DNA from: an uncultured Thermoleophilia bacterium
Lineage (GTDB): Bacteria; Actinomycetota; Thermoleophilia; Gaiellales; Gaiellaceae
Reading direction: 5' to 3'
NCBI GenBank assembly: GCA_963844235.1
Contig: CAWJNF010000005.1
Span: 65,899-129,898, forward strand
DNA length: 64,000 nucleotides
Part shown: positions 25,732-51,437 of the stretch, one piece after another
Layout: each line of letters begins with the position of its first letter
Position numbering within the stretch: the first letter of the stretch is position 1
Program-made: the position numbers and the translations under genes
Notes under the pieces: model-generated
The model's database searches: none
What the model was told of the DNA's origin: nothing
The model's input: only the letters and a program-made list of their open reading frames with translations

Positions 25732-25781
25732 CCCTGACCTCAAGTAGAGGTTCATGTTCGCGGGCAAATCGGGGAGGGATT

Positions 25782-36573: not shown

Positions 36574-37989
36574 TCACCGGCCGAGCCGCCGCAGCGCCGC
36601 TCGCGCGGCCCAGTAGCCGCACATGCCGTGGACTCCTCCGCCCGGCGGCGTGGACGACGAGCACAGGAAGACACCGGGCAGCGGTGTCTCGTACGGGACG
36701 AGCCTCGCCACGGGCCTGGTGAGGAGCTGGCGCAGGTCCTGGAGGCCGCCGTTGATGTCGCCGCCGACGTAGTTGGCGTTGTAGCGCTCGAGCTCCTGCG
36801 GGCCCAGAACGTGCTGCGCGATCACTCGTTCGCGAAAGCCGGGCGCAAAGCGCTCGATCTGGGCCTCGATCCGCGCCGTCATGTCGACCCGGGACCCATT
36901 CGGCACGTGGCAGTAAGCCCAGACGGTGTGCTTGCCCGGCGGCGCCCGGCTCGGGTCGAAGAGGCTCTGCTGCGCGAGCAGAACGTAGGGCCGCTCCGAT
37001 GTACGCCCTGCGGCCACCGCAGCCTCGGACGCGGCGATCTCCTCGAGCGTCCCGCCGAGATGGACGGTGCCGGCGCGCGCGCACTCGGGAGCCCGCCACG
37101 GGATCGGGCCGTCGACGGCCAGGTCGAGCTTGAACGCGCCGGGCCCGTAGCGAAATCGCTCGAGGCGGCGGCGATAGCCGGCCGGCAAGCGGCTACCGGC
37201 GAGGCGGAGAAGTTGCCGTGGCGTGACGTCGAGGAGCACGGTGCGTGCGCGCGGCAGCTCGGCCAGGGATTCCACACGCCGGCCGAGCTCGAGCTCACCC
37301 CCGAGCGAGCGCAGGCAGGCGGCGAGCGCTTCGGCGAGCGACTGCGAGCCACCTCGGGGCATGGGCCAGCCGACGTGATGGCCGAGCAGGCCGAGCGTGA
37401 GACCGAAGCCCGCGCTCGGCGAGCTGGTGAGAGGAAGCAGCGAATGCGCGGCGAGCCCTGCGAAGAGGGCACGGGCCCGGGGGCTCGCAAAGCGACGGCG
37501 GGCCAGGCCGACGGCCGACTGGGCTCCGAGCAGGCCGAAGCGGGCGAGCGGCACGGGATGCTCGGGAACGCGGAGCGGGCCGAGGATGTCGGCGAGGAGA
37601 TCGTCGGCGTCCGCGACGAGCGGTCCCATGAGCCTGCGATAGGCGCCCGCGTCGGCCCCGAGCCCCTGTGCTGTCGCCTCGACGGAGCGCTCGAGGAGCG
37701 CGGCCGTTCCGTCGTCGAAGGGGTGGGCCAGCGGCGCCGGCGGCTGGATCCACTCGAGGCCGTGCCGCTCGAGCTCGAGCGTTCCGAGGAACGGGGAGCC
37801 GAGACCGAGCGGATGGATGGCGGAGCAGACGTCGTGGCGGAAACCCGGAAGCGTCAGCTCCTGCGTTCGCATCCCACCGCCCGCGGTCGGCGCCGCCTCC
37901 AGGACGAGCACGGAGCAGCCCGCGCGCGCCAGCAGGATCGCTGCGGCGAGGCCGTTTGGCCCGGAGCCGACGACGACCGCGTCGTGCAT
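36574..37989 (-). CDS. FAD-dependent oxidoreductase, phytoene-desaturase (CrtI) family
   Basis: MHDAVVVGSGPNGLAAAILLARAG (Rossmann GxGxxG); C-terminal SSSTPPGGGVHGMCG. Confidence 0.8.
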   Translation of the reverse strand: MHDAVVVGSGPNGLAAAILLARAGCSVLVLEAAPTAGGGMRTQELTLPGFRHDVCSAIHPLGLGSPFLGTLELERHGLEWIQPPAPLAHPFDDGTAALLERSVEATAQGLGADAGAYRRLMGPLVADADDLLADILGPLRVPEHPVPLARFGLLGAQSAVGLARRRFASPRARALFAGLAAHSLLPLTSSPSAGFGLTLGLLGHHVGWPMPRGGSQSLAEALAACLRSLGGELELGRRVESLAELPRARTVLLDVTPRQLLRLAGSRLPAGYRRRLERFRYGPGAFKLDLAVDGPIPWRAPECARAGTVHLGGTLEEIAASEAAVAAGRTSERPYVLLAQQSLFDPSRAPPGKHTVWAYCHVPNGSRVDMTARIEAQIERFAPGFRERVIAQHVLGPQELERYNANYVGGDINGGLQDLRQLLTRPVARLVPYETPLPGVFLCSSSTPPGGGVHGMCGYWAARAALRRLGR

Positions 37990-37992
37990 CCT

Positions 37993-38724
37993 CTAACCGC
38001 GCGCCTGATTCCTCCCGCGGCGTGGGCGCATTGCGTGCAGGGTCGAGCGGATGGGCGCCGAGTGCCTGACGTTTCCGGCCTTCGACCACTGGCGCCGGCG
38101 GTCGACGCAGACGACCTGCGTCTCGACGGGGGCCGTGACACCGAGGTGGGCGGCAAGGTTGGCCAGCGTCTGCTCCCAGAAGCGGTCCTCCACGCGGTGC
38201 CCGCCGAGAGCGAGTCCGAGCTCTGTCAGGGGGTCCTGCGCCCGTACGAGCAGTTGTGCCTGAGCCACGGTCTCCCCATCCTGCTCGTGGGCGCTGAACG
38301 TGATCCAGCCGGCGAGCATGTGACCCTGGGGCGTCATCTCCGTGAACGACACGTCGTCGGCGTGGAGTGTCATCACACCGGTCGAGAGCTTGAGCCCGGC
38401 GGGTCCGGCCGCCTTGATCAACGCGACCTCGCCCGGCTCGATGCCGGTGAGCGACGGGTAGAAGGTGTTCCCTTCCGGCCAGAACTCGGCGAACCGTTCC
38501 TTCCAGATGCCGATCACCTCTGCCGGGGTGAGCTGCGAGCCCTCCAGCCGGACGCGGTACGTCTTCTGCCACATCTTCCCGAAGCCCTGGAGCGGGCCGA
38601 GCAGGCGCTTGCCCTCGACGAGGTTGGCGGCTCCCTCCGGCACGGACTCGACGTGCAGCGTCGAGACCGGCTTCGCCCAGTGCCCTGCGTCGCGCGGTGT
38701 CTCGTTCATCGTCTCCTCCTTCAC
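37993..38724 (-). CDS. DUF1990-like protein
   Basis: 243-aa ORF with good composition. Family assignment is from memory of the ...FGKMWQKTYRVRL... type. The start abuts the STAS stop. Confidence 0.6.
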   Translation of the reverse strand: MKEETMNETPRDAGHWAKPVSTLHVESVPEGAANLVEGKRLLGPLQGFGKMWQKTYRVRLEGSQLTPAEVIGIWKERFAEFWPEGNTFYPSLTGIEPGEVALIKAAGPAGLKLSTGVMTLHADDVSFTEMTPQGHMLAGWITFSAHEQDGETVAQAQLLVRAQDPLTELGLALGGHRVEDRFWEQTLANLAAHLGVTAPVETQVVCVDRRRQWSKAGNVRHSAPIRSTLHAMRPRRGRNQARG

Positions 38725-39075
38725 TCAGGCGACGGCTGCGAGCGCGTCGGCCTCCGAGTCGTAGATTCCGATGGCTTCGTCGAGGCGGGTGAGCTCGAAG
38801 ATCTGCCGGTAGTGCTCGTTGAGGCCGACGGCGAGCAGCTTCTGCTTCGCCCGATTCGCTCGCACGAGCACGGTGACGAGCAGTCCGATCCCGCTCGAGT
38901 TCATGTACTCGAGCTCGCTGAAGTTGAGCACGAGCGCCCGCACTTCCTCGCCTCCCGCGCGGGCGTAGGCGTCCATCAGCGCTTCCTCGCTTGCGGCCGT
39001 GAGCTCGCCGCGTACGTCCACGACCCGGGCGCCGTGACCGGCGTCCCGCACCTCCAGGTTGAGCGTCGTCTGCAT
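38725..39075 (-). CDS. STAS-domain anti-sigma-factor antagonist (RsbV/SpoIIAA-like)
   Basis: 116 aa; LVLNFSELEYMNSSGIGLLV with the phosphorylatable Ser context. Confidence 0.85.
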   Translation of the reverse strand: MQTTLNLEVRDAGHGARVVDVRGELTAASEEALMDAYARAGGEEVRALVLNFSELEYMNSSGIGLLVTVLVRANRAKQKLLAVGLNEHYRQIFELTRLDEAIGIYDSEADALAAVA

Positions 39076-39088
39076 GCGTCCTCCTTCC

Positions 39089-39424
39089 TCAGCTCGCGTC
39101 CTCGTCCGGAAGGATCCGGACGAAGTCCGCGATGCGGGTGATCTCGAAGATCTCGCGGTAGTGGTCGGTGAGGCCTCGGGCCTCGAGCTCCACGCGGTCA
39201 CGGCGTCCCTTCGCAAGCAGCCCGACGAGGAGCGCAATGCCGGTCGAGTTGATGTATCCGACGCGGCTGAAGTCGAGTGTGACGACCCGCGCCCCGTTGC
39301 CCGTCGCCTCCGCGTAGGCGGCTTCCAGCGCAGCTTCGGCGCCACTGTCGACGTCGCCCTCGAGCTCGACGACAGCCGTCTCGGCCGCCGGCGACACGCG
39401 CGCCTCAAACCGACTCGTCTGCAT
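39089..39424 (-). CDS. STAS-domain anti-sigma-factor antagonist (second copy)
   Basis: 111 aa; VTLDFSRVGYINSTGIALLV. Its start overlaps the upstream gene by 20 nt. Confidence 0.85.
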   Translation of the reverse strand: MQTSRFEARVSPAAETAVVELEGDVDSGAEAALEAAYAEATGNGARVVTLDFSRVGYINSTGIALLVGLLAKGRRDRVELEARGLTDHYREIFEITRIADFVRILPDEDAS

Positions 39425-41024
39425 CCACGTCTCCTCCCAGCCGGAACGCGAGCTCGAGCGTGTGGCTCTCGCCCTCGGTCCACGTCTCGATGTCGTCAGC
39501 CATGTGCTCGATCAGAAACAGGCCCCAGCCGCGTGGCTTTTGCTCGCCCGCGAGCTTCGCCTCGAGGTCGGGTCGTTCGGGCTCGACGATCGGGCGCGCT
39601 CCGCCGCCGTCCGTGATTCGCACACGGAGCCGCTCGCTGTCGGCGAGCACCTCGATGGCAACAGGCACCTCGGGTCGTGAGTCGTTGCCGTGCTCGATCG
39701 CGTTCATGGCAGCCTCGGAGACGGCTGTCCGCAACCGTTCGAGCGTCGTCGCCGGAACGGCGAGTCGCGCGACTGCCGTCGTGACACGCTCCATGGCCTC
39801 CCGCTCGTTGCCGGGCACGCTCGCCAGCTCGAATGCGGCGAGCACCGTGCCGTTTCCGCCTGCAGAGGTCACCGGCTGCGGCGCCCGTTCGAGCGCGACA
39901 AGCGTGATGTCGTCCTCCTGCTCCCAGGCCGAGCCCGTGAAGCGGTCGAGCTCAGCGAGCAGCCCCTCGACCGGTGAGGTCGAGGCGGTCGAGAGCCCCA
40001 TGAGCTCCCGCAGGCGCGGGAAGCCGAACATCTCGCCGCCCGGATCGTGCGCCTCCACGAGGCCGTCCGAGTAGAGGAGCAGGCACTCGCCGGGCTCGAG
40101 CACGGCCTCCTTCTCGTCGTACTCCATCTCCGGCATCAGGCCCAGCGGCATGCCCGTTGCGCGAAGCTCCACCGAGCCGCTCGCCGTGCGCACGCACGGC
40201 AGGTTGTGGCCGGCGTTCGCGTAGCGGAGCACCCCGGTCGACGGCTCGAGAACAGCGAAGAGGCACGTGACGAACATCTTCGGCGGCATGTCGGGGCAGA
40301 GCAGGTCGTTCGCTCGGCGCAACACCGCCGCGGGGGAGGACTGTCGCTGCGACGTAGCCCGCAAGATGCTCCGCGTCGCCGCCATCACCATCGCGGCCGG
40401 GACACCCTTGTCGGTCACGTCGCCGACCACGAAGGCGACTCGGCCACCGTCGAGCTCGATGACGTCGTAGAAGTCGCCGCCGACCTCTCGGGCCGGCTTG
40501 TAGTGGGCCGAGATCTCCCAGCCGGCGAGATCGGGGAGCTCGCGCGGAAGGAAGTTCTGCTGGATGAGCCGGGCGACCTCGAGCTCCTGCTCGATCCGCT
40601 CGTGCTGACGCGCCTGTATCTCCTGCTCGCGCACGAGCTGGCCGACCCGGAGTGCCGGCGCGGCCTGGGCCGCGAGGCTGTCGAGCAGCCGGCGATCGTC
40701 CGTCGAGTAGTCCTGATCCGAGAGCCGCGGCCCGAGGTTGAGCAGGCCGATCAGCTCGCCCTGGCTGACGAGCGGCACGACGAGCTTCACACCCGTCGCT
40801 CGTAGCGCCGCGAGCGCCGGCGAGTCGAGGTCGAGGCTGTCGACGTCGATTGCGCCAGAGGCGCTCTCGAAGTACGCGACGAGCGGGTCGTTGGGAGCGA
40901 TGTCGAGATCGAGCGCTCCGGCAGGCGTCGCCGGCGTGTGCGCGGCGAGATCTCTCGCTTCGTCCGACGGAAGCGCGGGATCCTGTGGCTGCGCTCGACG
41001 GAAGATGTGGGACAAACGCGTCAT
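39405..41024 (-). CDS. GAF / PP2C (SpoIIE-type) phosphatase / RsbW-like HATPase fusion protein
   Basis: GAF-like LVVPLVSQGELIGLLNLG. PP2C motifs GGDFYDV...VGDVTDKGVPAA...NAGH...LYSDGLVE. C-terminal EAAMNAIEHGN...ITDGGGA...GWGLFLI. Confidence 0.85.
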   Translation of the reverse strand: MTRLSHIFRRAQPQDPALPSDEARDLAAHTPATPAGALDLDIAPNDPLVAYFESASGAIDVDSLDLDSPALAALRATGVKLVVPLVSQGELIGLLNLGPRLSDQDYSTDDRRLLDSLAAQAAPALRVGQLVREQEIQARQHERIEQELEVARLIQQNFLPRELPDLAGWEISAHYKPAREVGGDFYDVIELDGGRVAFVVGDVTDKGVPAAMVMAATRSILRATSQRQSSPAAVLRRANDLLCPDMPPKMFVTCLFAVLEPSTGVLRYANAGHNLPCVRTASGSVELRATGMPLGLMPEMEYDEKEAVLEPGECLLLYSDGLVEAHDPGGEMFGFPRLRELMGLSTASTSPVEGLLAELDRFTGSAWEQEDDITLVALERAPQPVTSAGGNGTVLAAFELASVPGNEREAMERVTTAVARLAVPATTLERLRTAVSEAAMNAIEHGNDSRPEVPVAIEVLADSERLRVRITDGGGARPIVEPERPDLEAKLAGEQKPRGWGLFLIEHMADDIETWTEGESHTLELAFRLGGDVDADESV

Positions 41025-42290
41025 TGCTGTGCTCCTGTTGTACGGCCACGCCGTCCGGCGGGCGTTACGGCATCCGTTACGGCGGGACGAAGCCAGAGCG
41101 ACACACGCTCGGGCTCCAGCGTTCCCCGCACCACGCTGGTGAGCTCGCCGTGGAGCGTGGCGATGTCGATCTCGTCGCGCAGCCGGGCGGAGAAGGCCTC
41201 GAGCGTGCGCTGGGCGTCATAGCGGCGGCGGTAGAAGCGCCGGTCGACCGCTCGCTGAACTCGGGCCCGCACGGGACGAAAGAGCGCGGCCACGGCGAGC
41301 GTGGAGACGGCGATGGCCAGGTCGGAGCCACCGCCGAAGGAGGAGAAGACCTCCTGGAGCCCGAGCACGGTCCCGAAGTAGACGCCGACGAGCAGCGCCG
41401 AGACGGCGGCGTACACGACGGCCCGGTTGACAATCCGGTCGATGTCGTAGAGCCGGTAGCGAAGAATGGCGATTCCGGCCGCCAGCGGGATCGTGGCGAT
41501 GGCCAGGAGCAGCAGCGGCTCCCAGACGGCGCCATCGTCGATGTACCAGAAGAGGAGCGGGCCGCTCGCAAAGGTGGCGCCCACGAGGCCGGCGGCGCTC
41601 GCGACCCACTTGAGCTGCTGGCGCTCGAGCCCTGTTGCCCGGCGGAAGCGGAGGACGAGCGAGGCTGCCGAGACGACAATCCCGACGAACATGAGAATGG
41701 AGGCGACAGTCGCGACGCTTTCGAGCGCGTCCGCGAGAGGGCCTTCGGCTGCGTATGGATTCGTCAGAGGCTCGAAGTCCTCGAGCGTGTGGGGGCTGAA
41801 CATCTCTCCGAGCAGAGCGAGCACGATGGCGCCGACAACGATCCAGACGACAGGCACCCAGCGCCTGGACAGCAGGCGACCCTCGGGGAAGAGGAGGAAG
41901 AGGAGTGTCGCGGCGAGGAACAGCGGTGGCAGAAGGAGCCACGACCCCAGCCAGGCCATGGTCTCGCCGGCCGGAAGGGAGCCGGGCTCGGTCAGCAGCG
42001 CGTAGAGGGCGTACTGGTTCGCGAAAGCAGCGACCGCGAACAGGCTTCCCAGGCCGACGAAGATCCAGCCGATCGGGTTCTGAGGGCGGCGAGAGGCGAT
42101 GAGGGCGCCGACGGCCGGAAAGGTCAGCGACGACGATACCGAACAGGGCGTCGCCGATCCGTGACGACCCGAAATTGCTGACGCCAGGCGTCGAGCTGTT
42201 GAGGATCAGGAAGACGAGCGCGGCGAACGCCAGCGCGATCGCGATCGCGCAAACCGCCCAGGCCAGACGGGTCGTGCCCCGCCGGCTCAT
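41021..42290 (-). pseudogene. membrane-module paralogue P7 (one frameshift near 42121-42128)
   Basis: [13 protein letters not shown]...GIVV, then shift, then LTFPAVGALIASRRPQNPIGW...LLFLLFPEGRLLSRRW...ERQQLKW...LRYRLYDIDRIV...[19 protein letters not shown]...SLWLRP. ATGA overlaps at both ends. Confidence 0.75.
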
Positions 42291-43505
42291 CGCTGCACCT
42301 TCGGTCCTCGGAGCCAGAGCGACACCTGATCGGGTTCCAGCGTTCGCCCCACCACGTCGGTGAGCTCGCCCTGGAGCGACGCGATGTCGACCTCGTCGCG
42401 GAGGCGGGCCGCGAACGCCTCGAGCGTCCTCTGCGCGTCGTAGCGCCGGCGGTAGAAGCGCCGGTCGACTGTCCGCTGGACTCGGGTCCGCAATGGGCCG
42501 GAAGAGCGCGGCGACGGCGAGCGTGGAAACGGCGATGGCCAGGTCGGAGCCGCCGCCGAAGGATGAGAACACCTCCTGGAGCCCGAGGACGATCCCGAAG
42601 TACGCGCCGGCGAGGAGCGCCGAGACCGCGCCGTAGACGACCGCGCGGTTGACGATACGGTCGAGCTCGTAGAGGCGGTAGCGGAGGATTGCGATCCCGG
42701 CCGCGATGGGGATGGTGGCGACTGCAAGCAGCAGAACCGGCTCCCAGGGCCCGTCGTCGATCCACCAGAAGAGGAGCGGGCCGCTGGCCCACGCGACAGC
42801 CACCAGGCCCGCTGCGCTCGCCACCCATTTGAGCTGCTGCCGCTCGAGTCCTGTCGACCGGCGAAACCGCAGGATCAGCGAGATCGCCGACGCGATGAGG
42901 CTTGCGAGCATCAGCACGAACGCGACGTTCGCGACGATCTCGAGGGCATCGGCAGCCGCACCTGCGACTGCGTACGGGTTCTCGATCGACTCGAAGTCCT
43001 CGAGCGGGCCGGGCAAGAACATCTCGGCGAGCAGGGCCAGCACGATCCCGCCCGCGGAGGCCCAGAGGACCGGCAGCCAGCGCCGCGAGAGAAGACGGCC
43101 GTTGGGGAAGAGGAGGAAGACCAGGGTTCCGCTCAGGATGAGCGGAGCCAGGAAGAGCCAGGACTGCACCCAGGCCATCGCCATGCCTGCCGGCAGCGCC
43201 CCCGGCTCGGCGACGAGCGCGTAGGTCGCGTACTCGTTTGCGAAGGCCGAGATCGCGAACATCGCTCCCAGGCTGAGGAAGATCCAGCCGATCGGGTTCT
43301 CGGGTCGGCGGGAGGCGACGAGCGCCCCTACGGTCGAGAACGTGAGCAGAGCGACTAGGAAGAACGCGTTACCGACCTGCGACCCGATCGTGCTCTCGTC
43401 GGAGTTCGAATGGTTGAGAAAGACGAACGCAAGAGCGGCCGAGGTCAGTACGACGGACGCCGCGAAAGCGCCCCAGGCGAGGCGGGTAGCCGTGCGGCTG
43501 CTCAC
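42287..43505 (-). pseudogene. membrane-module paralogue P6 (one frameshift near 42498-42501)
   Basis: Intact frame from GTG 43505 through ...STLAVAALF. An extra C in CTCTTC(C)GGCCC breaks the frame; the tail [27 protein letters not shown]...SLWLRG continues in the next frame to 42287. Confidence 0.75.
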
Positions 43506-44842
43506 CGCTCCACCTCGGCGGCGAAGAGCTGACGCTCGCCCTGCACGCCCTTGAGCTCACGGGTGCGAGGGTCTTCGAAGCTCACGCCGGAGCCGGCCAC
43601 GAGCTCGCGGACAGTGCTCGAGACGAGGATCTCGCCGGCGCCGGCCATCTCGGCGACCCGCGCTCCGATGTGCACCGCGATGCCGCCCAGGTCGTCGCCG
43701 TGGAGCTCGCACTCTCCTGCGTGGACACCGGCGCGGAGCTCGAGACCGAGCGGCCGGACGCTGTCCCGAACGGCGGCGGCGCAGCGGATCGCCTGTGTCG
43801 GGCTGTCGAAGGCCGCGAAGAAGCCGTCGCCGGTCGTCCGGAGCTCGCGACCGCGGAAGCGATCGAGCTCCCTTCGCATCAGCTCGTTGTGCCGCTCGAG
43901 CAGCTCCTTCCAGCGACTGTCGCCGAGCCTCGTCACGAGCTCCGTCGAGCCGACGATGTCGGTGAAGAGCAGGGTCGTGAGCACACGCTCGGGCTCGGGA
44001 GCAGTCCGGCGCGCACCGGTCACGAGCTCCTCGACCTCGCCGACGAGCGTCTCCGCGTCGCCGGCGAACGGCCAGTGGTCGTCCCCGGGCAGCTCGACGA
44101 GTCGCGCGCCGTGGATGTGATCGGCCAGGTAGCGGGAGTGACCGACGTCGACGAACCGGTCGCCCCTCCGGTGGAGGACGAGCGTTGGCGCCCGGAGCCC
44201 GTCGAGCCGATCGCGCACGTCGAGCGCGGTGTTCATCCGCATGAGCGAGACCGCGCGCCCGGGGCTCGCTCCGAGCCGCAGGAGCCGGGCGAACCAGCTC
44301 CGGTAGGCCTCGTCGTCTGCCAGGCTCGGCGCAAGAAGCGCGGCGCCGTCGGCGGAGCCCCAGCCCTCCTCGGTCGCCGAAAGGTAGAGCTGGATCGCTG
44401 CCGGCGACCAGCCGAGGTCGTAGCCGTCGCCCTGTGTGAACTTCGCCAGGCCGGCGTAGAGGGCGAGAGCCGCCACGCGCTCGGGGTGCTCGGCGGCGAA
44501 GAGCGCGGCCAGCGCAGCGCCGTCGAACACGCCGAGGAGGGCTGCGCGCTCGGAGCCGGCCGCGTCGAGCACGGCGCTGATATCCCCGATCCGCGCCTCC
44601 GGGGCGGGTAGGCCGTCCACGGGATCGGACATGCCCGTGCCGCGCTTGTCGAACACGATCAGGCGCGAGAAGGCCGCGAGCCGCCGCAGGAAGCGGGCAG
44701 ACGCCGGCAGCTCCCAGCTCAATTCAGCGTGCGACAGGAACCCCGGCACGAGCATCAGATCGACTGGCCCCTCGCCCACGACCTGGTACGCGATCGTGAC
44801 CTCGCCGCTGCGGGCGTAGCGCGTGTCGACTTGTGGCGTCAT
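43502..44842 (-). CDS. alpha/beta-hydrolase-fold / class III adenylate cyclase fusion
   Basis: N-terminal VDLMLVPGFLSH...VFDKRGTGMSD...; C-terminal LLFTDIVGSTEL...TTGDGFFAAF...LRAGVHAGE. Intact. ATGA and GTGA overlaps with the flanking paralogues. Confidence 0.85.
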   Translation of the reverse strand: MTPQVDTRYARSGEVTIAYQVVGEGPVDLMLVPGFLSHAELSWELPASARFLRRLAAFSRLIVFDKRGTGMSDPVDGLPAPEARIGDISAVLDAAGSERAALLGVFDGAALAALFAAEHPERVAALALYAGLAKFTQGDGYDLGWSPAAIQLYLSATEEGWGSADGAALLAPSLADDEAYRSWFARLLRLGASPGRAVSLMRMNTALDVRDRLDGLRAPTLVLHRRGDRFVDVGHSRYLADHIHGARLVELPGDDHWPFAGDAETLVGEVEELVTGARRTAPEPERVLTTLLFTDIVGSTELVTRLGDSRWKELLERHNELMRRELDRFRGRELRTTGDGFFAAFDSPTQAIRCAAAVRDSVRPLGLELRAGVHAGECELHGDDLGGIAVHIGARVAEMAGAGEILVSSTVRELVAGSGVSFEDPRTRELKGVQGERQLFAAEVER

Positions 44843-46055
44843 GTCGCACGACCCCGGAGCCAGACCGAGACATGCGCAGGTCGCATCGCCTCGTCGGCCG
44901 TGGCAGCGAGCTCCGCCTCGAGCGCGGCGAGCTCGACCTTCTCGCGCACGTGGCTTGCGAACGCCTCGAGGGTGCCCTGAGCGTCGTACTTGCGCCGGTA
45001 GAAGCGGCGATCGACGAGGGACTGGATGCGGTTCCGGACCGGGCGAAAGAGCGCGAACGCGATCAGCGTCGACGCCGCGATCGCGAGATCGCCGCCTCCG
45101 GCAACCGACGAGAACACCTGCTGGAAGAGCAGGACGATGGCGAGGTAGAGGCCGGCGAGGGCCACGGTCGCCGTGCCGTAGACGAGCGTGCGGCGGATGA
45201 TCAGGTCGATGTCGTAGAGGCGGTACCGCAAGATCGAGATGGTGGTCGCGACCGGGATACCGACCACAAGGGCGATCACCGCGACGCCCCAGAGAACGTC
45301 CGCGGCCAGTCCCGGGTCCACTACGGCGACGAGCAGAACCGCCGCTATCGGAGCGGCGACGACGAACGCAAGCCACTTGAGCTGCTGACGCTCGCACGCC
45401 TCTGGCCGCGCCGGAAGCGAAGCGTCAGCGAGAGCAGTGCCGCTGCGAGGCTCGCGGCAAGGAGCGCTGCGCCCGCTATGCCGAATCGCCGTTGAGCACG
45501 CCTTCCATGTCGATGCCGACGGGGTTGGCGAGCCCTCCGGTGAGCGGATCGGGGTGAAGAGCTTCCGCCAGGACGATGACCACCGTCCCGACCGCAGCCA
45601 GCCACACAGCGAGGCGCCACCGAGGCGTGAGCGGTTGGCCCTCCGGGAAGAGGAGCAGGAGAGATGGCACTGAGCCCGAACGCGGGCCAGACAGCCCATT
45701 CGTACATCCACGCGAGCACCTGAGGTACCGGCAGCGACCCAGGCTTGGCCGCGACGATCTCCGCCGCGGTCTCGGCGATGCCGACGACGCCCCAGACGAG
45801 CGAGAGGCTGCACATCAACCAGCCGACGGCATTCTCGGGCCGGCGAGAGGCCACAAGCGCGCCGGTCGTCGCGAACACGGCGAGCCCGAGGTCACCGAGA
45901 ATCTTGAGCCAAAGCGGAGCGACGTCAGCCAGCGGCGCGACGTCAGCCTCCGGCGCTGAAGAAGCACCGTAGACGGCGAGAGCGATCCCGAGCCCGGTAA
46001 GGGCCAGGTAAGCCCAGACGGACCAGGCGAGGCGGGTTGTTGTGCGCGTGCTCAC
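44839..46055 (-). pseudogene. membrane-module paralogue P5 (three frameshifts: ~45657, ~45485, ~45400)
   Basis: MSTRTTTRLAWSV...SRRPENAVGW...AIS, shift, LLLFPEGQPLTPRW...NPVGIDMEGVLNG, shift, FGIAGAALL...LRFRRGQ, shift, ERQQLKW...LRYRLYDIDLII...[19 protein letters not shown]...SVWLRG. Confidence 0.7.
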
Positions 46056-47223
46056 GTTCGTTTTTCAGGCGGCCGTAACCAGAGCGAGACCTGCGCGGGC
46101 TGCAACGTCTCCCGCACGACGCCTCGGAGCTCCTCGCCGATCGCGTCGAGATCGATCTCGTCGCGCAGGCTGGCGGAGAAGCTCTCGAGGGTTCGTCTGA
46201 GCATCGTAGCGACGGCGATAGAACCGCCGGTCTACCAATTGCTGGATACGCCGCCGCGCAGGCCCGAACAGCGCGGCGACCGCGAGCGTCGAGACGGCGA
46301 CGGCGAGGTCGGAGCCACCCGCGAACGAGGAGAACACCTGTTGCAGGAGGAGCACGATGCCGAAGTAGAGGCCGGCCAGAGCTACCGTGGCGACGCCGTA
46401 GACGAGGGTTCGCTTGAGGACCAGCTCGAGGTCGTACAGCCGGTAGCGGAAGATCGCGATGCCTGCCGCGATCGGAAGACTCGAGAGTCCTATGGCTCCG
46501 AGCACGGACAGCACCTCGCCCGAGTCGATGAGGAAGAACGAGGCGATGAAGATCGGGGCCGCCGCGAGGAACCAGCGGAGCTGCTGCCGCTCGTCCGCCC
46601 CTGCAGATCGATATCGGACGAACACGGACACCACTGCGAGCAAGAGCGCGAGCATCGTCCCGAGCCACGCCCAGCCGCCGTCGGAAAACAACGGGAACTC
46701 GATCTCGATGGGCTTGTCTGCCCCTGTAACGCTCGAGAGCGTGCCCGGCCCGAGGGCGGTTCCCAGCCCCATCACGAATAGCGAGGCAGCGGCGAGCCAG
46801 GCGACGGGACGGAATCGTGGGGAGGTCAATTGCCCGGTCGGAAACAGGAGGAGGAGAAACACTCCGAGCGCCAGCGCAGCCACAGGAGCCATATCCGCCA
46901 CCAACCCTGCCCAGGAGCCGCCCGGCAGCGAGCCCGGCGACTGTCGAAGTGCGTAGATCGCGTATTCCTGGCAGAACAGCGCGATCTGAATTCCGAGTCC
47001 TGCCGCGAGGAAGATCCAGCCGACCCGGTTCCCGAACCGGCGCGACACGATCAAGGAGCCAACGGCCGAGTAGGCGAGGATCGAGACGATGAGGGCCGGG
47101 TCGGTCGCCCGCGGGAGGTCAGAGATCTCGAGTGAGCGCGTGAGGCGCCCACAGCGCGAGCCCCCCGGCGGCGAACGCGACGGAGAGCCCGAGGAGCGAC
47201 CAGGCTACGCGGCCGCTCGTCAC
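46052..47223 (-). pseudogene. membrane-module paralogue P4 (two frameshifts: ~47128-47140 and ~46196)
   Basis: VTSGRVAWSLLGL..., shift, ...IVSRRFGNRVGW...LLLLFPTGQLTSPRFRP...ERQQLRW...FRYRLYDLELV...[13 protein letters not shown]. An extra A (CAG-A-CGA) then garbles the tail. The corrected frame ends in a GTGA overlap with P5. Confidence 0.7.
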
Positions 47224-48425
47224 CGCTTCTCCTGAGCGGGCCGAAGCCAGAGCGAGACGTCGGAGGGTTGCATGGTGTCGCGAACGACGGTGCGTAGCTC
47301 GGTGCCGAGGGCGTCCAGGTCGACCTCGTCGCGGAGGCGGGCGGAGAAGCTCTCGAGTGTTCGCTGGGCGTCGTAGCGGCGGCGGTAAAAGCGCCGGTCG
47401 ACCGCGTGCTGGACCCGCCGGCGGGCAGGGCCGAACAGCGCCGCGACGGCGAGCGTCGAGACGGCGACGGCGAGGTCGGAGCCGCCCGCAAAGCCGCTGA
47501 AGACCTGCTGCAGAGCAAGCACGATGGCGAAGTAGAGGCCTACGAGCCCGGCGGTCACGACGCCGTAGACGAGCGTGCGCCGGATGATCACGTCGATCTC
47601 GTAGAGCCGGTACCGGAGGACGGCGACGCCGACGGCGATCGGTAAACCGATGAGGCCGACGAGAAAGGCCGCTCCGGCGGGGCCCGAAAACTCGAAGAAG
47701 TACTGGATCGGCAGCGTGGCGAGCAGCAGCCCCGCTGCTCCGGCGAACCACTTGAACTGTTGCCGCTCCTCTCCGCGGGAGCGGCGGAACCTCACGAGGA
47801 GATGGACCGCGGCCAGCGCCACGCTGAGGAGACAGATCGCGACGATCAGGTCGGCGGCGGCGGAGTAGCTCTCGCTGCTGGTCACCGCGAGCGGGTTCTC
47901 GAAAGCTTCGAACGGCGGGTCGAGATGGCCGGGCGACGTCGAGAGGATCGTCCAGACGAGGGCGAAGCCGATCAGAACGCACGTCGCGAACCAGCGCCAG
48001 CGCCGCGACGGCAGGCGGCCTGCCGGAAAGACGAGGAGGACCAGGAAGACGCCCGCCATCAACGTGGTCCAGCTGCCGCCGCCGACGACCGCAGCCGCCG
48101 CGCCGGCGGGGAGCCCCGCCTCGGGCTTCGCGAGGAGCGCCAGCTCCGCATAGAAGTCGAGTACGCCTCCGAGAAGAAGCCCGACGCCTGCGAGCGCCAG
48201 CGCCCAGCCGACGAGGTTGCCGGGACGCTTGAGCGTCAAGATCGCGCCGACGACGGGAAACGTGAGCACGAGAAGGATGTCTGGACCGAGACTTGCCCGC
48301 TCGGTGGGCTGGTACGACCCGTTGAGCGCGATTAGGAGTGCGAGCGCGACGAGGCCGAGGGCCACCAGAACGGTGACGACCAACAGCAGGCGGGCGAGCC
48401 TGGCTGCCGGCACACGCGTGCTCAT
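47220..48425 (-). CDS. membrane-module paralogue P3 (only copy with an uninterrupted frame, 401 aa)
   Basis: MSTRVPAARLARLLL...LKRPGNLVGW...LVLLVFPAGRLPSRRWRW...FENPLA...RFRRSRGEERQQFKW...LRYRLYEIDVII...[65 protein letters not shown]...VSLWLRP. About 10 TM helices. Confidence 0.8.
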   Translation of the reverse strand: MSTRVPAARLARLLLVVTVLVALGLVALALLIALNGSYQPTERASLGPDILLVLTFPVVGAILTLKRPGNLVGWALALAGVGLLLGGVLDFYAELALLAKPEAGLPAGAAAAVVGGGSWTTLMAGVFLVLLVFPAGRLPSRRWRWFATCVLIGFALVWTILSTSPGHLDPPFEAFENPLAVTSSESYSAAADLIVAICLLSVALAAVHLLVRFRRSRGEERQQFKWFAGAAGLLLATLPIQYFFEFSGPAGAAFLVGLIGLPIAVGVAVLRYRLYEIDVIIRRTLVYGVVTAGLVGLYFAIVLALQQVFSGFAGGSDLAVAVSTLAVAALFGPARRRVQHAVDRRFYRRRYDAQRTLESFSARLRDEVDLDALGTELRTVVRDTMQPSDVSLWLRPAQEKR

Positions 48426-49635
48426 TCCGACCCCTTCAACCACAGCGAGACCCCGGTCGGACGCATCGTCTCGTCGACGACGGCCACGAGCTCTGCGCGC
48501 AGCGTGTCGAGGTCGACCTCCTGCCGCAGCCGGCCGCTGAAGGCCTCGAGCGTGCGCTGGGCGTCGTACCCGCGGCGGTAGAAGCGACGGTCGACCGCGG
48601 TTTGAATTCGTCGGCGCGCCGGCCCGAACAGTGCGGCAACGGCGAGGGTCGAGACGGCGACGGCGAGGTCGGAGCCGCCGGCGAAGGACGAGAAGACCTG
48701 CTGCAGGGCGAGCACGATGCCGAAGTAGAGGCCGGCGAGGGCGGCGGTCACGGCGCCGTAGACGAGCGTGCGGCGGATGATCACGTCGATCTCGTAGAGG
48801 CGGTACCTGAATATCGCGAATGCCGATGGCGAGCGGGAGAGCCACGAGGCCGGCGACCAACGGCGCGGCGCCGATCGAAGACTCCCCGTCGTGGACGAGA
48901 GCGTGATGAATCCAGCTGCGAGGAGGGTGGCCGCGTAGGCGAACCACTTGAGCTGCTGGCGCTCGTCTCCCCTGGCACGGTGAAGGCGAAGCACGAACGA
49001 GCTCGCCGACGCGAGGATGCTGACGACGAGCAGCGTCCAGCCGGTGGAGCCTTCGAGCGAGTCGAGGAACCCTCCGGCGCGGTCGATCACGAACGGATTC
49101 TCGATCGAGGTGATGTCATCGAAGCCGCCCAGCGGGCCCGGCGAGAACGAGCCGAGGAAGAGGACGACGAGGGAGCCCGCTGCGAGCCACGCGACGGGTC
49201 GCCAGCGCCGGGACGGCAACGGACCGTCCGGGAAGAGGAGGAGGAGGAACGCTGCGGTGATACCCAGTCCGACGTAAGGCGTCCACGACCAGAGCCAACC
49301 CAACGCCTGACCGCTGGCAGCGAGCCGGGGTTTGTGAAGAGGGCGTAGATCGCGTAGCCCTGGGCGAAGCCGGAGATGGCAAAAGCACCCCCGGCGGCAA
49401 TGAGGATCCAGCCGATCGCATTGCCGGTCTGGCGCCTGGCGATGAGGGCTCCGACGGCCGAGAAAGGAAGGAAGACGAGTGCGAAGAGCGCCTCGTCGTA
49501 CTTCTCCTCGCCGTCCGGGAGCGGCGTCGAGAGGTTGAGCGCCAGGAAAACCAGGCTGAGGGCGGTGAGCACGAGCGAGAGCCGACGAGACCCAGGGCCA
49601 CCGGACCCAGATCGTGGTTGCCCCGGTCTCCTCAT
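48422..49635 (-). pseudogene. membrane-module paralogue P2 (three frameshifts: ~49313, ~48903, ~48819)
   Basis: MRRPGQ...ARRQTGNAIGW...NPGSLPA, shift, GQALGWLWSW...LLLLFPDGPLPSRRWRP...ERQQLKW...AAGFI. The stretch ALVHDGESSIGAAPLVAGLVALPLAIGI is read only in another frame. The original frame resumes at AIFRYRLYEIDVII...SLWLKG. Confidence 0.7.
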
Positions 49636-50114
49636 GCGAACCAGCCTGCTTCTGCCCGCCGGGTATGGGCCGGGCTTCGTCGGAACCGCCACGTGCGGAC
49701 AGCCACGACCTGAGCGATCAGGACGATGGCCAGCGCATTGACGACGTGCAGGGCAGCGAGCTTCGGTACGTGTCCTGGGCCAGGACGAGCAGGCTTTGCA
49801 CGATGGTCAGGACGGTGAGCAGGCCGGACGGTCGGAGGATCGCGCGCGACTGCCCGGCGATGCCGTGAGCAGGATGAGCGCGGCGATGAACGTGAGCACG
49901 CGCCGAGAATCCGGTGGGCACCGAAGCTCTGCCCATCGAAGACGGCTAGGCCTGCGAGCAAGAACTGGGTTACCAGCCCCGCGAGGAACGCGACGACGAA
50001 GATCCACTGAAGGGTTCGGGCTGCACGCGGCTGGGGCCTCCAGTGGAATCGTCGCCTCGTTGTTCGCGGCGACGAACCGAGCTTCGCCACGGGGCTGGTG
50101 CGAAGATCGCTCAC
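49632..50114 (-). pseudogene. small ~4-TM membrane protein (DUF6220-like, from memory) with three same-direction frameshifts (~49900, ~49864, ~49772)
   Basis: The first 72 and last ~45 codons are coding-like in one frame (...TLQWIFVVAFLAGLVTQFLLAGLAVFDG...; ...PKLAALHVVNALAIVLIAQVV...). The middle hydrophobic pieces RVLTFIAALILLTA and IAGQSRAILRPSGLLTVLTIVQSLLVLAQD sit in the other two frames. Confidence 0.55.
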
Positions 50115-51281
50115 CGACCGCTCCTGAGCCAGAGCGTGACGTGAGCCGGCTGCATCGTCTCCTCGACGACGCGGCCGAGCTCATCTCGCAGCGTGTACAG
50201 GTCGATCTCGTGCGCGCAGCCGGCCGCTGAACGCCTCGAGCGTGCGCTGGGCGTCGTAGCGGCGACGGTAGAAGCGGCGGTCCACCGCGGTTTGAATTCG
50301 TCGGCGCGCCGGCCCGAACAGTGCGGCGACGGCGAGGGTCGAGACGGCGACGGCGAGGTCTGAGCCGCCCGCGAACGACGAGAAGACCTGCTGCAGGGCG
50401 AGCACGATGCCGAAGTAGAGGCCCGCGAGCGCGGCGGTCGCGACGCCGTACACGAGCGTTCGGCGGACGATCAGATCGATGTCGTAGAGGCGGTACCTGA
50501 GAATGGCGAAGCCGGCGGCGATCGGAATGGCGGTGAGTGCTGCGACCGCCAATGCGCCGGCGAGCTCCTCGAAAACGGCCGAGCCCGTGTCTTCGGCGAA
50601 GCCCTCCATCAAGAACGCGACGGCGAAGAGCACGCCGGTGCTTGCCACCAACTTGAGCTGCTGACGCTCGACGGCTCCCGAGCGCCGGAAGCGCACGACG
50701 AGCGCCGCCGCGGCGAGTACGAGGCTCGGGAGGAGGATGAACCAACCGGCAGTTGCGGCGCTCCCGAGTACCTCAGGTGCGCCCTCGATGCGGAGCGGGT
50801 TCGCGACGTGCTCGAACGGTTCCGTGAGCATCTCGGGCTGGAGAACGCCGACGGCGTAGGCGAGAAGAGCGACAGCCTGGAGCCACACGAGGGGTCTCCA
50901 CCGGCGCGATGGGGGCACCCCCGTCGGGAACAGCAGCAGGATGAGCACCCCCGCGAAGAAGGCTATGGCCCAGACGTTCGCCCCGACGAATGCCGCGTAC
51001 TCGCCTCCGCGGAGGGAGCCGGGCTCCGCGACGAGCGCGTGGTAGCCGTACGCCGTGGCGAACACCGCGACGGCGAGGACGACGCCGACGACGCAGAAGA
51101 GCCAGCCAATGGGGTTTCCGGGCCGTCTCCTCGCGATCGTCGAGCCGACGCCGGCGAACGCGATGGCTGGAATGAGGACGACGGCGTCGTCCCAGCGACC
51201 GTCCACCACGCCGAAGGCGAGCGTGCCCGCAGCGAGCGCGAGGGACAGGCCGAGCGGCACCCAGGCGAGCGCCGCGCTCAT
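50111..51281 (-). pseudogene. membrane-module paralogue P1 (one frameshift near 50210-50216; as sequenced the ORF ends at 50181)
   Basis: MSAALAWVPLGL...ARRRPGNPIGW...LILLLFPTGVPPSRRWRP...RFRRSGAVERQQLKL...LRYRLYDIDLIV...[24 protein letters not shown]. An extra C then shifts the frame. The corrected tail DEIDLYTLRDELGRVVEETMQPAHVTLWLRSGR ends in a GTGA overlap with the next gene. Confidence 0.7.
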
Positions 51282-51368
51282 GTGGGAAGGACGGAGTGCC
51301 GTGATCAACGGATTCTCCGACACGGCGCCGTCACGCGCCACCTCGTGGACGCGAAGCGTCTCACGGGT

Positions 51369-51392
51369 GGAACGCTGCCGCGGCAGCGTTCC
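51369..51392. promoter_or_regulatory. perfect 24-nt palindrome GGAACGCTGCCG/CGGCAGCGTTCC in the divergent intergenic region
   Basis: Read directly from the sequence. Lies between the P1 start (51281, -) and the regulator start (51438, +). Confidence 0.4.
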
Positions 51393-51397
51393 GGGTC

Positions 51398-51416
51398 CGT
51401 TACGGCGACCGTAACG
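51398..51416. promoter_or_regulatory. second palindrome CGTTACGG-CGA-CCGTAACG
   Basis: 8-bp arms, 6 nt downstream of the first palindrome in the same intergenic region. Confidence 0.35.
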
Positions 51417-51437
51417 CGATCGAGGTACGTTGCGCTC

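Follow-up and report, generated by a model that had tools for sequence, protein, structure and literature searches.

The window analyzed here is a 64,000-nucleotide stretch of DNA from an uncultured soil actinobacterium. Between positions 36574 and 51281, 14 minus-strand genes are arranged head to tail. The first of them, P1 (50111..51281; +1 frame change near 50210), encodes a 10-TM membrane module and is followed by a small membrane-protein gene (49632..50114; 160 codons, the middle third seemingly out of frame) and then by P2 (48422..49635; −1 frame change near 49290, with tblastn matches in two frames), P3 (47220..48425; 401 aa, the sole P copy with an uninterrupted frame), P4 (46052..47223; +1 frame change, an extra A, near 46197) and P5 (44839..46055; frame change near 45385). 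An intact gene for a LipJ-like alpha/beta-hydrolase joined to a class III adenylyl cyclase (43502..44842; 446 aa) precedes P6 (42287..43505; +1 frame change, an extra G, near 42497), and P7 (41021..42290; frame change near 42130-42165) completes the array. In a tblastn search with P3, P1 matched in two frames, residues 50-365 at 51% identity and residues 367-395 at 59%. P3 has more than 6884 homologues of ~400 aa, none of them named, and a Pfam search of P3 returned no family at threshold; the small membrane protein matched DUF6220 weakly (E 7e-4), below the cut-off.

Downstream of the array lies a gene (39405..41024) for a 539-aa protein in which a partial GAF segment (GAF') is followed by a PP2C phosphatase domain of the SpoIIE family (Pfam SpoIIE, 180 bits) and an RsbW-like Ser kinase domain (HATPase_c_2, 75 bits). 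It carries the motifs GDVTDKG, YSDGLVEA, EQEDDITL, EAAMNAIEHG, ITDGGG and GWGLFLI, and its orthologues (24 + 19 loci) are 52 to 81% identical; among NCBIfam names, the PP2C domain came closest to SiaA (60 bits; cut-off, 700). Two STAS genes follow. STAS-1 (39089..39424; 111 aa; Pfam STAS 3.3e-11, STAS_2 4.5e-12) has a Ser in YINSTG, with N-S-(T/S)-G retained in its orthologues, and STAS-2 (38725..39075; 116 aa; Pfam STAS 4.9e-16) has a Ser in YMNSSG. The next gene (37993..38709) encodes U243, a conserved START/Bet v 1-fold protein of 243 aa that has the motif GFGKMWQKTYR and belongs to no Pfam family. Its alignment holds 18 orthologues (mean identity, 64%), and Foldseek comparison of its AF2 model (pLDDT 72) with the PDB retrieved START/SRPBCC proteins with E values down to 8e-6. 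The last gene (36574..37989) encodes a 471-aa CrtI/CrtO-family FAD/NAD(P) oxidoreductase (Pfam Amino_oxidase and NAD_binding_8; NCBIfam CrtO, 126 bits with a cut-off of 1000, and crtI_fam, 67 bits with a cut-off of 238), whose orthologues at the same position are 57 to 67% identical. Pfam and NCBIfam thus bore out most of the gene identities proposed in an earlier, sequence-only reading of this DNA (SpoIIE, HATPase_c_2, partial GAF, two STAS, Abhydrolase_1 plus Guanylate_cyc and the FAD/NAD oxidoreductase). The exception was the name “DUF1990-like” for the 243-aa protein, because only 2 of the 18 orthologues matched DUF1990 (E 0.013), below threshold.

All nine of the four-base overlaps that had been described for the array were found at the claimed coordinates, each with the minus-strand sequence ATGA or GTGA (50111-50114, GTGA; 49632-49635, ATGA; 48422-48425, ATGA; 47220-47223, GTGA; 46052-46055, GTGA; 44839-44842, ATGA; 43502-43505, GTGA; 42287-42290, ATGA; 41021-41024, ATGA), and a purine-rich, Shine-Dalgarno-like stretch lies 6 to 10 nt 5' of most of them. 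Such overlaps make up 35% of tight same-strand frame-switch junctions genome-wide (490/1386), and the nine are not nine independent events, since the P junctions descend from a single duplicated unit. Of the spacings given for the downstream genes, three stood: PP2C and STAS-1 overlap by 20 nt (39405-39424), 13 nt lie between STAS-1 and STAS-2, and 3 nt separate U243 from the CrtI-like gene. The “0-nt” junction between STAS-2 and U243 did not: it needs a GTG at 38724, whereas the start used in the orthologues corresponds to the ATG at 38709, preceded by AAGGAGGAG, so that the gap is ~15 nt. NTGA overlaps at the P-to-P and P-to-PP2C junctions were seen again in the orthologous clusters of other genomes, as was a PP2C-to-STAS overlap of 14 or 20 nt; tight coupling is therefore conserved. 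Within the string we found no promoter-like sites (0.5 expected by chance) and three terminator-like sites (6.3 expected), none above chance. These results agree with the earlier proposal of a single unit, and the string appears to be one operon, probably with its promoter in the divergent intergenic region and under the control of a neighboring SARP activator.

This SARP/AfsR-like regulator is encoded divergently on the plus strand (51438..54222) and consists of a wHTH-BTAD region (BTAD 1.1e-16), an AAA_16 ATPase (3.2e-23) and TPRs (TPR_12 2.4e-18); in the assembly the gene is broken by a frame change at ~52990-53126 into ORFs 50808..53126 and 52990..54222. In the 156-nt divergent intergenic region we identified a candidate SARP operator (51386..51415, minus strand) composed of the direct repeats GTTACGG, GTAACGG and GGAACGC with a period of 11 to 12 nt. 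The pattern CGTAACG-n4-GG(A/G)ACG recurs at the equivalent place in ~25 orthologous SARP-P intergenic regions. A divergent SARP gene adjoins the cluster at 18/24 loci found with a P seed and 12/20 found with a U243 seed. The string had been described as devoid of a DNA-binding output; this overlooked the SARP gene, and since both regulator and candidate operator are conserved beside the string, a DNA-binding component is not missing.

The order of divergent SARP, 1 to 12 P modules, GAF'-PP2C-HATPase, STAS, STAS, START-fold protein and CrtI-like oxidoreductase is conserved across many uncultured bacteria, in Thermoleophilia/Gaiellales, other Actinomycetota and Chloroflexota MAGs. P-PP2C-STAS-STAS-U243(-CrtI), with 1 to 11 copies of P, was present at 24 of 77 loci seeded with P3, and an independent sample seeded with U243 contained PP2C and STAS at 19/20 loci, CrtI at 15/20, P at 16/20 and SARP at 12/20. 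The proposed link of the membrane array to PP2C, HATPase and STAS is thus borne out by co-occurrence in other genomes, and its gene order marks the string as this lineage's version of a conserved cluster. We found no published description of this layout in the literature. As had been noted, the string contains no sigma factor; the closest sigma-70 gene, at a distance of ~10 kb, does not belong to the conserved neighborhood.

GAF models match the 539-aa protein by their C-terminal half alone (profile positions ~52/65-133), and the “GAF input” of the earlier reading is therefore only the C-terminal part of such a domain, the first helix and strand being located at the end of each P protein. The P tails carry ...LxxLxxVVxxTMQPxxVSLWLRP, so that each P protein comprises a membrane module plus the first GAF helix and strand, and P7 ends in ...VSLWLRP plus 20 residues, with its stop codon overlapping the PP2C start. 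The soluble protein opens with the GAF remainder (IAPNDPL...VVPLVSQGELIGLLNLG...) and continues through a long linker helix into PP2C and HATPase_c_2. The gene boundary is thus inside a small GAF-like domain, past its first helix and strand.

A search with PP2C residues 38 to 150 as the query retrieved proteins of 735 to 1008 aa in which this segment lies at ~390-610, behind a P module, and a second search found many more P-GAF-PP2C(-HATPase) fusions (730 to 1122 aa), annotated merely as RsbU/RsbW-like. Such single chains occur in many bacteria and consist of a ~10-helix membrane module, a small GAF-like domain, PP2C and, in many cases, an RsbW-like serine kinase. In the fusions ...SLWL(R) is followed by a variable linker of 10 to 70 aa and then by IAPxDPL. 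The split PP2C proteins have a basic leader of ~40 residues, conserved in character, that the fusions lack. Downstream of the fused gene we found STAS, STAS and a U243 orthologue (61%) at one locus (L118) and STAS and a CrtI orthologue (66%) at another (L120). In the AF2 model of one fusion, P0231 (mean pLDDT 83), a helix at 370-385 is followed by a strand at 390-394, FSLWL (pLDDT 76 to 88; its pairing is taken from the DSSP strand assignment alone), a linker at 395-413, the GAF' helices and strands at 414-463 (pLDDT ~90) and a linker helix of 50 residues that leads to PP2C. A profile of the junction region matched only GAF domains in the PDB, weakly (E 0.003 to 0.35) and colinearly, with the tail helix on GAF helix 1 and the PP2C N terminus on the GAF C-terminal half. 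Joining the P7 tail to the PP2C N terminus extended the Pfam GAF match from 65-133 to 9-133, with a small gain in score (32.5 to 36.9 bits). Genome-wide, the P tails number exactly seven and GAF' occurs once, and all of them lie in the operon.

As the GAF helix and strand missing from the phosphatase end each P protein, the P modules are better seen as its detached input domain than as independent upstream parts. We consider it fairly likely (probability, about 0.6) that several membrane inputs dock on one partner-switching core via a GAF domain split over two genes. Four things are observed directly: synteny is conserved, fusions exist, the gene boundary falls within the domain, and the two halves stand at 7:1. 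From these we infer trans-complementation, a route of signal flow and a target. In this scheme, the gene that is single-chain elsewhere would be cut inside the GAF-like domain and the membrane input domain detached from the phosphatase and multiplied. Each P tail would complete the truncated GAF in trans and so tether the phosphatase-kinase to the membrane, and the state of the P module's divergent N-terminal helices would pass from the tail along the linker helix to the switch element of PP2C. The balance between PP2C and kinase would then set the phosphorylation of the conserved Ser in both STAS proteins. These may in turn bind or release a target, one that is not a locally encoded sigma factor. 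For the target or a ligand-handling arm, the best candidates would be the START-fold protein and the CrtI-like oxidoreductase of the same cluster.

It is also conceivable, if unlikely, that the P proteins are coexpressed with the core and do not dock on it, sensing or scaffolding alone or for other partners such as orphan kinases, in which case the fusions would be the sign of a shared pathway and nothing more. At ~50 of the 77 P-seeded loci, about two thirds, one P gene stands by itself, lacking PP2C, STAS and U243 genes within 10 kb, and the neighbors are heterogeneous. This implies that P modules can work alone or with other partners; P-like modules that head HisKA_3 histidine kinases fit the same idea. 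Against it, the gene boundary falls within a predicted compact domain and not between domains, the genome pairs seven tails with one tail-less GAF, and the P-to-PP2C overlap junction is conserved. Furthermore, the tails are the conserved part of the P paralogues: within arrays the N-terminal ~250 residues are 29 to 37% identical, and the last three helices plus tail are 63 to 78% identical.

The single-base frame changes that interrupt P genes in the assembly count against the docking of several inputs. Three of them affect a junction, as described earlier, but six of the seven P genes are shifted, not three. If these shifts were real, six P genes would be pseudogenes, only P3 and the soluble core would function, and the multi-input layout would be a relic. 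Six net frame changes fall in ~8.5 kb of P genes and none in the ~5.8 kb of LipJ, PP2C, STAS, U243 and CrtI genes, and a genome-wide scan picked up three of the P-gene shifts where ~0.6 would be expected from the genome average. We nevertheless regard such decay as quite improbable. The sister genome, L047, has the frame-keeping base count at 5/6 shift sites (P5 is ambiguous), lacking the extra base in P1 and having one base more in P2. The sister's private frameshifts reach even LipJ, PP2C, STAS-1 and U243, and the same scan gave ~355 candidate frameshifts genome-wide, with the adjoining SARP gene also affected. Differences from the sister concentrate at codon position 3 (positions 1/2/3: 8/5/32 in P4 and 13/14/51 in P6), by which measure the P genes are under purifying selection. 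Relatives are MAGs built from Nanopore reads alone and polished in a single Medaka round (PMC12313526), which also counts against real frameshifts, and polishing presumably errs most in repeats. The P-gene frameshifts are probably long-read assembly errors.

The sequence-only reading had tied the array to cAMP, and the membrane modules might indeed mainly control the LipJ-like cyclase, with cAMP as an output modulated or read by the partner-switching module. The intact cyclase gene shares ATGA/GTGA overlaps with P5 and P6, its catalytic domain is close to that of Rv1900c (structure 1YBT; E 1.3e-48 over 156 residues), five other loci have a single P gene ~0.3 to 1 kb from a same-strand LipJ-like gene, and SiaABCD sets a precedent for a partner switch controlling a nucleotide cyclase (PMC8457831). 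We think this very unlikely, however, because the cyclase is confined to the window, sister L047 and L024 and is missing from 21/24 P-seeded and 20/20 U243-seeded clusters; it lies outside the conserved system, and the cAMP link is local. By Pfam, moreover, the cyclase has no GAF remainder able to accept a P tail, and the string has no cNMP-binding domain. The small membrane gene is confined to the window and L047, and on these distributions both genes are recent inserts of this lineage.

Finally, ribosomes shifting by −1 at the CAA-TGA/ATG overlap would join the P7 and PP2C frames into one chain, as in the single-chain forms elsewhere, but such recoding is extremely improbable given that the junction has no slippery heptamer, that its start codon and Shine-Dalgarno-like stretch are conserved in other genomes, that the conserved leader of the split PP2C proteins begins at the overlap ATG and that the identical overlap occurs at every P-to-P junction, where fusion would be senseless.

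Like RsbU/RsbP-RsbW-RsbV and SpoIIE-SpoIIAB-SpoIIAA of Bacillus subtilis, the core combines a phosphatase of the PPM/SpoIIE family with a GHKL serine kinase and a STAS antagonist whose Ser can be phosphorylated, and in phosphatases of this type an N-terminal sensor domain regulates activity via a linker helix (PMC12143880). Here, in contrast, a single chain carries both phosphatase and kinase, two STAS proteins are encoded, START-fold and CrtI-like genes accompany them, no sigma factor is found in or near the conserved cluster, and the input would be a detached, multiplied membrane module. Rv1364c of Mycobacterium tuberculosis and OsaC of Streptomyces coelicolor are described as actinobacterial fusions of a PAS/GAF sensor, PP2C and an RsbW-like kinase domain (PMC12143880). 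Likened by domain architecture, they are soluble, single-input proteins tied to SigF/SigB (with the STAS in cis in Rv1364c), whereas here the sensor is membrane embedded and split off and the STAS proteins are encoded separately. SiaABCD of Pseudomonas aeruginosa is likewise a sigma-less partner switch, with the PP2C SiaA and a kinase, whose substrate controls a nucleotide cyclase (PMC7647112, PMC8457831); it differs in that the substrate is SiaC and the output a diguanylate cyclase, the cyclase here being a class III adenylyl cyclase and not a conserved member. That enzyme has the two-domain lipase-adenylyl cyclase architecture of LipJ/Rv1900c of M. tuberculosis (NF058673, 457 bits, below the equivalog cut-off of 800), and the nucleophile elbow of its hydrolase domain reads GVFDG. 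The SARP shares BTAD, a STAND ATPase and TPRs with AfsR/SARP regulators of Streptomyces, as well as direct repeats of ~11-nt period in the target promoter region, but this cluster has candidate repeats (GTAACG/GGAACG) and a regulon of its own. PYR/PYL/RCAR abscisic acid receptors, which act with clade A PP2Cs in plants, also bring a START-fold ligand-binding protein together with a PP2C, and PYL-PP2C complexes were among the U243 fold matches (TM 0.4 to 0.65, 12 to 17% identity), a likeness at the fold level only, as generic START proteins match equally or better.

Further counterparts are the single-chain P-GAF-PP2C(-HATPase) proteins (e.g., P0210, 947 aa; P0277, 908 aa; P0231, 758 aa; 52 to 75% identity in the junction region), which are annotated merely as “RsbU” or “SpoIIE family phosphatase” and of which we found no experimental characterization in the literature. 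They share the membrane module, GAF-like domain, PP2C and kinase and the downstream STAS, U243 and CrtI genes and differ in having one gene, one input and, in the L118 and L120 contexts, no SARP neighbor. For the multiplication of inputs the parallel is the B. subtilis stressosome, in which the paralogous soluble STAS-domain sensors RsbRA to RsbRD form a large complex and feed one RsbT/RsbU. In both arrangements several paralogous sensors, variable at the sensing end and conserved at the docking end, serve one phosphatase pathway, but the P sensors are membrane proteins of 10 helices and are proposed to dock by completing a split GAF fold.

The genome (5.24 Mb in 8 contigs, ~70% GC) carries the fourteen genes head-to-tail on the minus strand of the window, at 36574-51281. 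The sequence-only reading had proposed nine ATGA or GTGA overlaps along this string, all of which were found, and its spacings for the downstream genes also held, apart from the start of the 243-aa gene (U243) that defined the 0-nt junction; judged on sequence, the true start is more likely the ATG at 38709, which lies 3' of AAGGAGGAG and is the start used by orthologues. Because the P junctions derive from duplication of a single unit and four-base overlaps make up 35% of tight same-strand frame-switch junctions genome-wide, a run of nine overlaps is unremarkable per se. What counts, rather than the length of the run, is that the same overlap junctions recur in the clusters of other genomes. 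A scan for consensus promoters and terminators carries no information in an actinobacterium of 70% GC.

When P3 was used as the seed, 24 of 77 loci contained, in identical order, one to eleven P genes, the PP2C-HATPase gene, STAS-1, STAS-2, U243 and usually then the CrtI-like gene, with each protein showing 50 to 70% identity to its window counterpart; the divergent SARP gene lay upstream in 18 of the 24. Of 401 genomes sampled across the phylum, 58 carried U243, and these were concentrated in four families (15/26, 18/21, 9/10, and 12/31). Twenty regions around U243 matches from the 401-genome sample gave an independent sample, in which PP2C and STAS genes accompanied U243 in 19 regions, P genes in 16 (up to 12 copies), the CrtI-like gene in 15, and the SARP gene in 12. 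Several genomes (L105, L106, L109, L110, and L115) carry U243 as a tandem duplicate, and in some (L106, L111, and L109) the core has P arrays on either side, with 10 to 12 P copies within 20 kb. In two related clusters, a small additional SRPBCC/polyketide-cyclase-like gene (L032:8489-8995 and L037:6878-7420) separates the P array from the PP2C gene.

Pfam and NCBIfam gave the identities of the LipJ-like gene, the PP2C gene, the STAS pair, and the CrtI-like gene but assigned no family to the P proteins or to the 243-aa protein. The PP2C protein matched the full SpoIIE model (5e-53, positions 1-191 of 192), as expected of a PPM/SpoIIE-family phosphatase, and its metal-binding motifs (GDVTDKG, YSDGL, and EQEDDIT) vary little or not at all among 45 homologues. 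The same protein has a predicted GHKL serine kinase domain (HATPase_c_2, 5.7e-21, positions 5-125 of 127) with N, G1, and G2 boxes reading EAAMNAIEHG, ITDGGG, and GWGLFLI. Both STAS proteins were recognized by Pfam, and the serine of their YINSTG and YMNSSG motifs, a putative phosphorylation site, is kept in 17 and 22 orthologues, respectively. The string had been described as lacking a sigma factor, and this was borne out: no Sigma70_r2 match that could represent the target of the partner switch occurs in it. The nearest such gene (25707-26444, plus strand) is the sole sigma-70-family gene in the window and was not found in related clusters; the cluster itself includes no sigma factor. L071, L074, and L076 have a 73%-identical sigma-70 gene ~9 kb away from single-copy P genes and not close to the conserved cluster.

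P3, read by hydropathy and the positive-inside rule, has ten membrane helices followed by a cytoplasmic tail. Neither P3, P7, nor P1 matched any Pfam family, and thus none matched HisKA_7TM (PF16927) at the gathering threshold; a precomputed PF16927 match was present in 2 of 120 P homologues among the matches listed, and the P proteins matched the membrane region of PrsK weakly (E 5e-4; Pfam/NCBIfam). P-like modules also head HisKA_3 histidine kinases, so the relation of P modules to HisKA_7TM is functional and architectural.

The isolated P tail had no Pfam match. More informative are single-chain proteins of 735 to 1122 aa in which a P module is followed by GAF, PP2C, and often HATPase_c_2 domains. 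In these fusions the P sequence ends in SLWL(R) and is joined through a variable linker of 10 to 70 residues to IAPxDPL, where the conserved part of the window PP2C protein begins. The fused gene is followed by two STAS genes and a U243 orthologue in one locus (L118) and by a STAS gene and a CrtI orthologue in another (L120). In the AF2 model of a 758-aa fusion (P0231; pLDDT 83), the tail forms a helix (370-385) and a strand (390-394, FSLWL), after which come a low-confidence linker, the helices of the GAF remainder with a VVPLIS/ELIGLLNL hairpin (pLDDT ~90), and a 50-residue helix running into PP2C. A profile of the tail/GAF region matched only GAF domains in the PDB, colinearly and with the tail on GAF helix 1. 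The GAF of the window PP2C protein is incomplete: the protein covers only positions ~52/65-133 of the GAF profile, the first helix and strand of the fold are carried by the P proteins, and once the P7 tail is joined to the PP2C N terminus the Pfam GAF match widens from positions 65-133 to positions 9-133. The fusions, the AF2 model, the PDB profile matches, and the wider Pfam match place the boundary between the P7 and PP2C genes within a small GAF-like domain, and homology extends this placement to the ends of all P genes. The genome holds exactly seven P tails and one tail-less GAF. Among the P proteins of an array, identity is 63 to 78% in the tails and last helices, compared with 29 to 37% in the N-terminal ~250 residues. 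By homology and modelling, the P modules are thus predicted to be the input domain of the phosphatase, detached from it.

A basic leader of ~40 residues (M-x-x-x-x-H/Q-x-x-R-R; residues 1-37, window 40914-41024) is common to split PP2C proteins and missing from the single-chain forms; it could contact the membrane or a P protein. Among the downstream neighbors of single-copy P genes we found no common partner starting with a GAF remainder; these neighbors are heterogeneous and often on the opposite strand, and there is therefore no general partner rule for single-copy P genes.

A tblastn search with the intact P3 revealed that, of the seven P genes, six undergo a net change of frame, in each case through one base gained or lost at a non-homologous, non-slippery site. 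The sister genome (L047), which shows 86 to 96% DNA identity, has a frame-keeping length at five of the six sites (P5 is ambiguous), and its assembly contains private frameshifts of its own in LipJ, PP2C, STAS-1, and U243. The P genes appear to be under purifying selection, since differences between the window and L047 fall mainly at third codon positions. A codon-score scan returned ~355 candidate frameshifts across the genome, a rough count from a home-made method whose thresholds were re-tuned after the scores had been viewed and whose sensitivity was ~50% on six known sites. The array is about 5-fold enriched in detected shifts (3 found versus 0.6 expected), which we tentatively attribute to polishing errors in repeats, and many of the relatives' metagenome-assembled genomes (MAGs) come from the Nanopore-only Microflora Danica set (PMC12313526). 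On this sequence comparison, the six P-gene frameshifts are probably long-read assembly errors and not biological; programmed frameshifting was rejected on the basis of the non-homologous positions, the lack of slippery motifs, and the fact that five of the six shifts are private to the assembly. The SARP gene also changes frame, at 52990-53126, between its ATPase and TPR parts, and orthologues elsewhere align as one gene. The codon-score scan gave a further candidate at 20021-20069 (minus strand), in an unrelated gene. Annotators of long-read MAGs should be aware that gene calling yields broken genes for arrays of this kind and records the split GAF as a normal one.

The window and L047 further differ in P copy arrangement, by a single unit at each of two places (window 48440-47662 and 43507-41088), the sister having one fewer near P2/P3 and one more near P6/P7, which argues for unequal crossing-over within the array. 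The small membrane gene (49632-50114) has an Arg/Pro/Ser-rich central third between two hydrophobic parts. L047 matches both of its ends in different frames, suggesting compensating indels.

Synthesis of cAMP had been proposed as part of the system, a claim that the comparison does not support for the conserved cluster: the LipJ-like cyclase gene occurs in 0 of the 20 U243-seeded regions and is confined, among clusters, to the window, L047, and the related locus L024. Other clusters lack both the cyclase gene and the small membrane gene, which are therefore inserts of this lineage. The LipJ-like protein has the LipJ architecture and scores 457 bits against LipJ NF058673 (positions 9-448 of 449), below the equivalog cutoff of 800, and is therefore a paralogue or homologue, not an equivalog. 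Its cyclase domain is close to Mycobacterium tuberculosis LipJ/Rv1900c (1YBT, E 1.3e-48), and the Guanylate_cyc match (7.2e-10) and the alignment of FTDIVGST and TTGDGF with Rv1900c predict a class III nucleotidyl cyclase. The alpha/beta-hydrolase domain has GVFDG in place of the G-x-S-x-G nucleophile elbow and may be non-catalytic or Asp-using; its PDB sequence matches include the strigolactone/karrikin receptor hydrolases. A P gene adjoins a LipJ-like gene in five other loci, so a looser P/LipJ association may exist. A recurring trio (L041:11087-11587, L058:11087-11587, and L053:11072-11446) consists of a single P gene, a gene whose ~167-aa product has four cysteines and an N-terminal membrane or signal segment, and a LipJ-like hydrolase-cyclase gene.

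The string had also been said to lack a DNA-binding output. The divergent gene next to P1 is nevertheless a conserved neighbor, with a candidate operator between the two, and the system thus has an adjacent DNA-binding component; the product of the divergent gene is SARP/AfsR-like (BTAD, 1.1e-16; AAA_16, 3.2e-23; TPR_12, 2.4e-18), with a winged helix-turn-helix recognized by eye. A CGTAACG-n4-GG(A/G)ACG direct repeat stands at the equivalent intergenic position in ~25 loci, and the three direct repeats in the window (51415-51386, minus strand) are a good candidate for a SARP box driving the operon. Two palindromes noted earlier at 51369-51416 (CGTTACGG-TCG-CCGTAACG and GGAACGCTGCCGCGGCAGCGTTCC) overlap these repeats; the direct-repeat core, GTAACG n5 GGAACG, is kept in other genomes, whereas the palindromic extensions are not obviously so.

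U243 had been called DUF1990-like, an assignment we do not retain: the window protein did not match DUF1990 (PF09348), and 2 of 18 orthologues did so at E 0.013, below threshold. Its AF2 model (pLDDT 72, moderate) has the beta-alpha-alpha-beta6-long alpha-beta topology of a START/SRPBCC helix-grip fold, and in a fold search each of the 50 PDB matches at E ≤ 1e-3 was a START/SRPBCC or Bet v 1-like protein; searching the PDB with a sequence profile gave no match, so that the fold was placed by structure search alone. In the clusters examined, U243 always co-occurs with STAS genes and is at times duplicated. The CrtI-like protein scored 67 bits against crtI_fam (TIGR02734; cutoff, 238) and 126 against CrtO (cutoff, 1000), below both, and its sequence places it as a predicted FAD/NAD(P) oxidoreductase of the phytoene desaturase superfamily. 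The fold and company of U243, the extra SRPBCC-like genes, and the CrtI-like oxidoreductase point to a role for a small hydrophobic molecule at some step of the circuit. U243 might be the target of the STAS proteins, might sense a ligand for PP2C in the manner of plant PYL proteins, or might play another part.

Partner-switching phosphatases rank among the major signalling devices of bacteria, and to our knowledge the way in which signals reach them is known for few, soluble cases. Our model starts from the observed synteny, fusions, split point, and stoichiometry. In the key step, which is inferred, each P tail would supply in trans the part that the GAF of PP2C-HATPase lacks. The linker helix would then relay the state of the P module to the switch element of PP2C, in line with the general mechanism described for RsbU and with models of PPM phosphatases linked to GAF and PAS domains (PMC12143880). 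The balance of phosphatase and kinase would set phosphorylation of the conserved serine in STAS-1 and STAS-2, which would act on a non-sigma target. A bolder version, to which we give a probability of only about 0.3, is that the seven P halves compete to complete the one tail-less GAF, so that fold complementation rewires the switch among inputs, and that U243 and the CrtI-like protein make or bind a hydrophobic, isoprenoid-like ligand acting on PP2C or STAS, as a bacterial counterpart of plant PYL-PP2C logic.

The architecture itself is solid, widespread, and testable. The cluster provides a defined and widespread case in which a membrane module serves as the input, has been cut from its enzyme at a precise intradomain point, and has been multiplied up to ~12 times, and split and single-chain versions coexist in nature. 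Whether a GAF can be completed in trans, whether several sensors converge on one output, and what a sigma-less STAS pair acts on thereby become accessible to standard binding and phosphorylation assays. Two large unnamed families, the ~400-aa P proteins (>6800 homologues) and the START-fold "GFGKMWQKTYR" protein, now have a functional context. A literature search found no description of this cluster, and we could find no published description of the membrane module as a PP2C input, the separation within a GAF, the amplification of the array, or the fixed company of START, CrtI-like, and SARP genes. The parts, in comparison, are those of textbook partner switching: fused phosphatase-kinases are already known (Rv1364c and OsaC), and a sigma-less switch has a precedent in SiaABCD (PMC7647112, PMC8457831).
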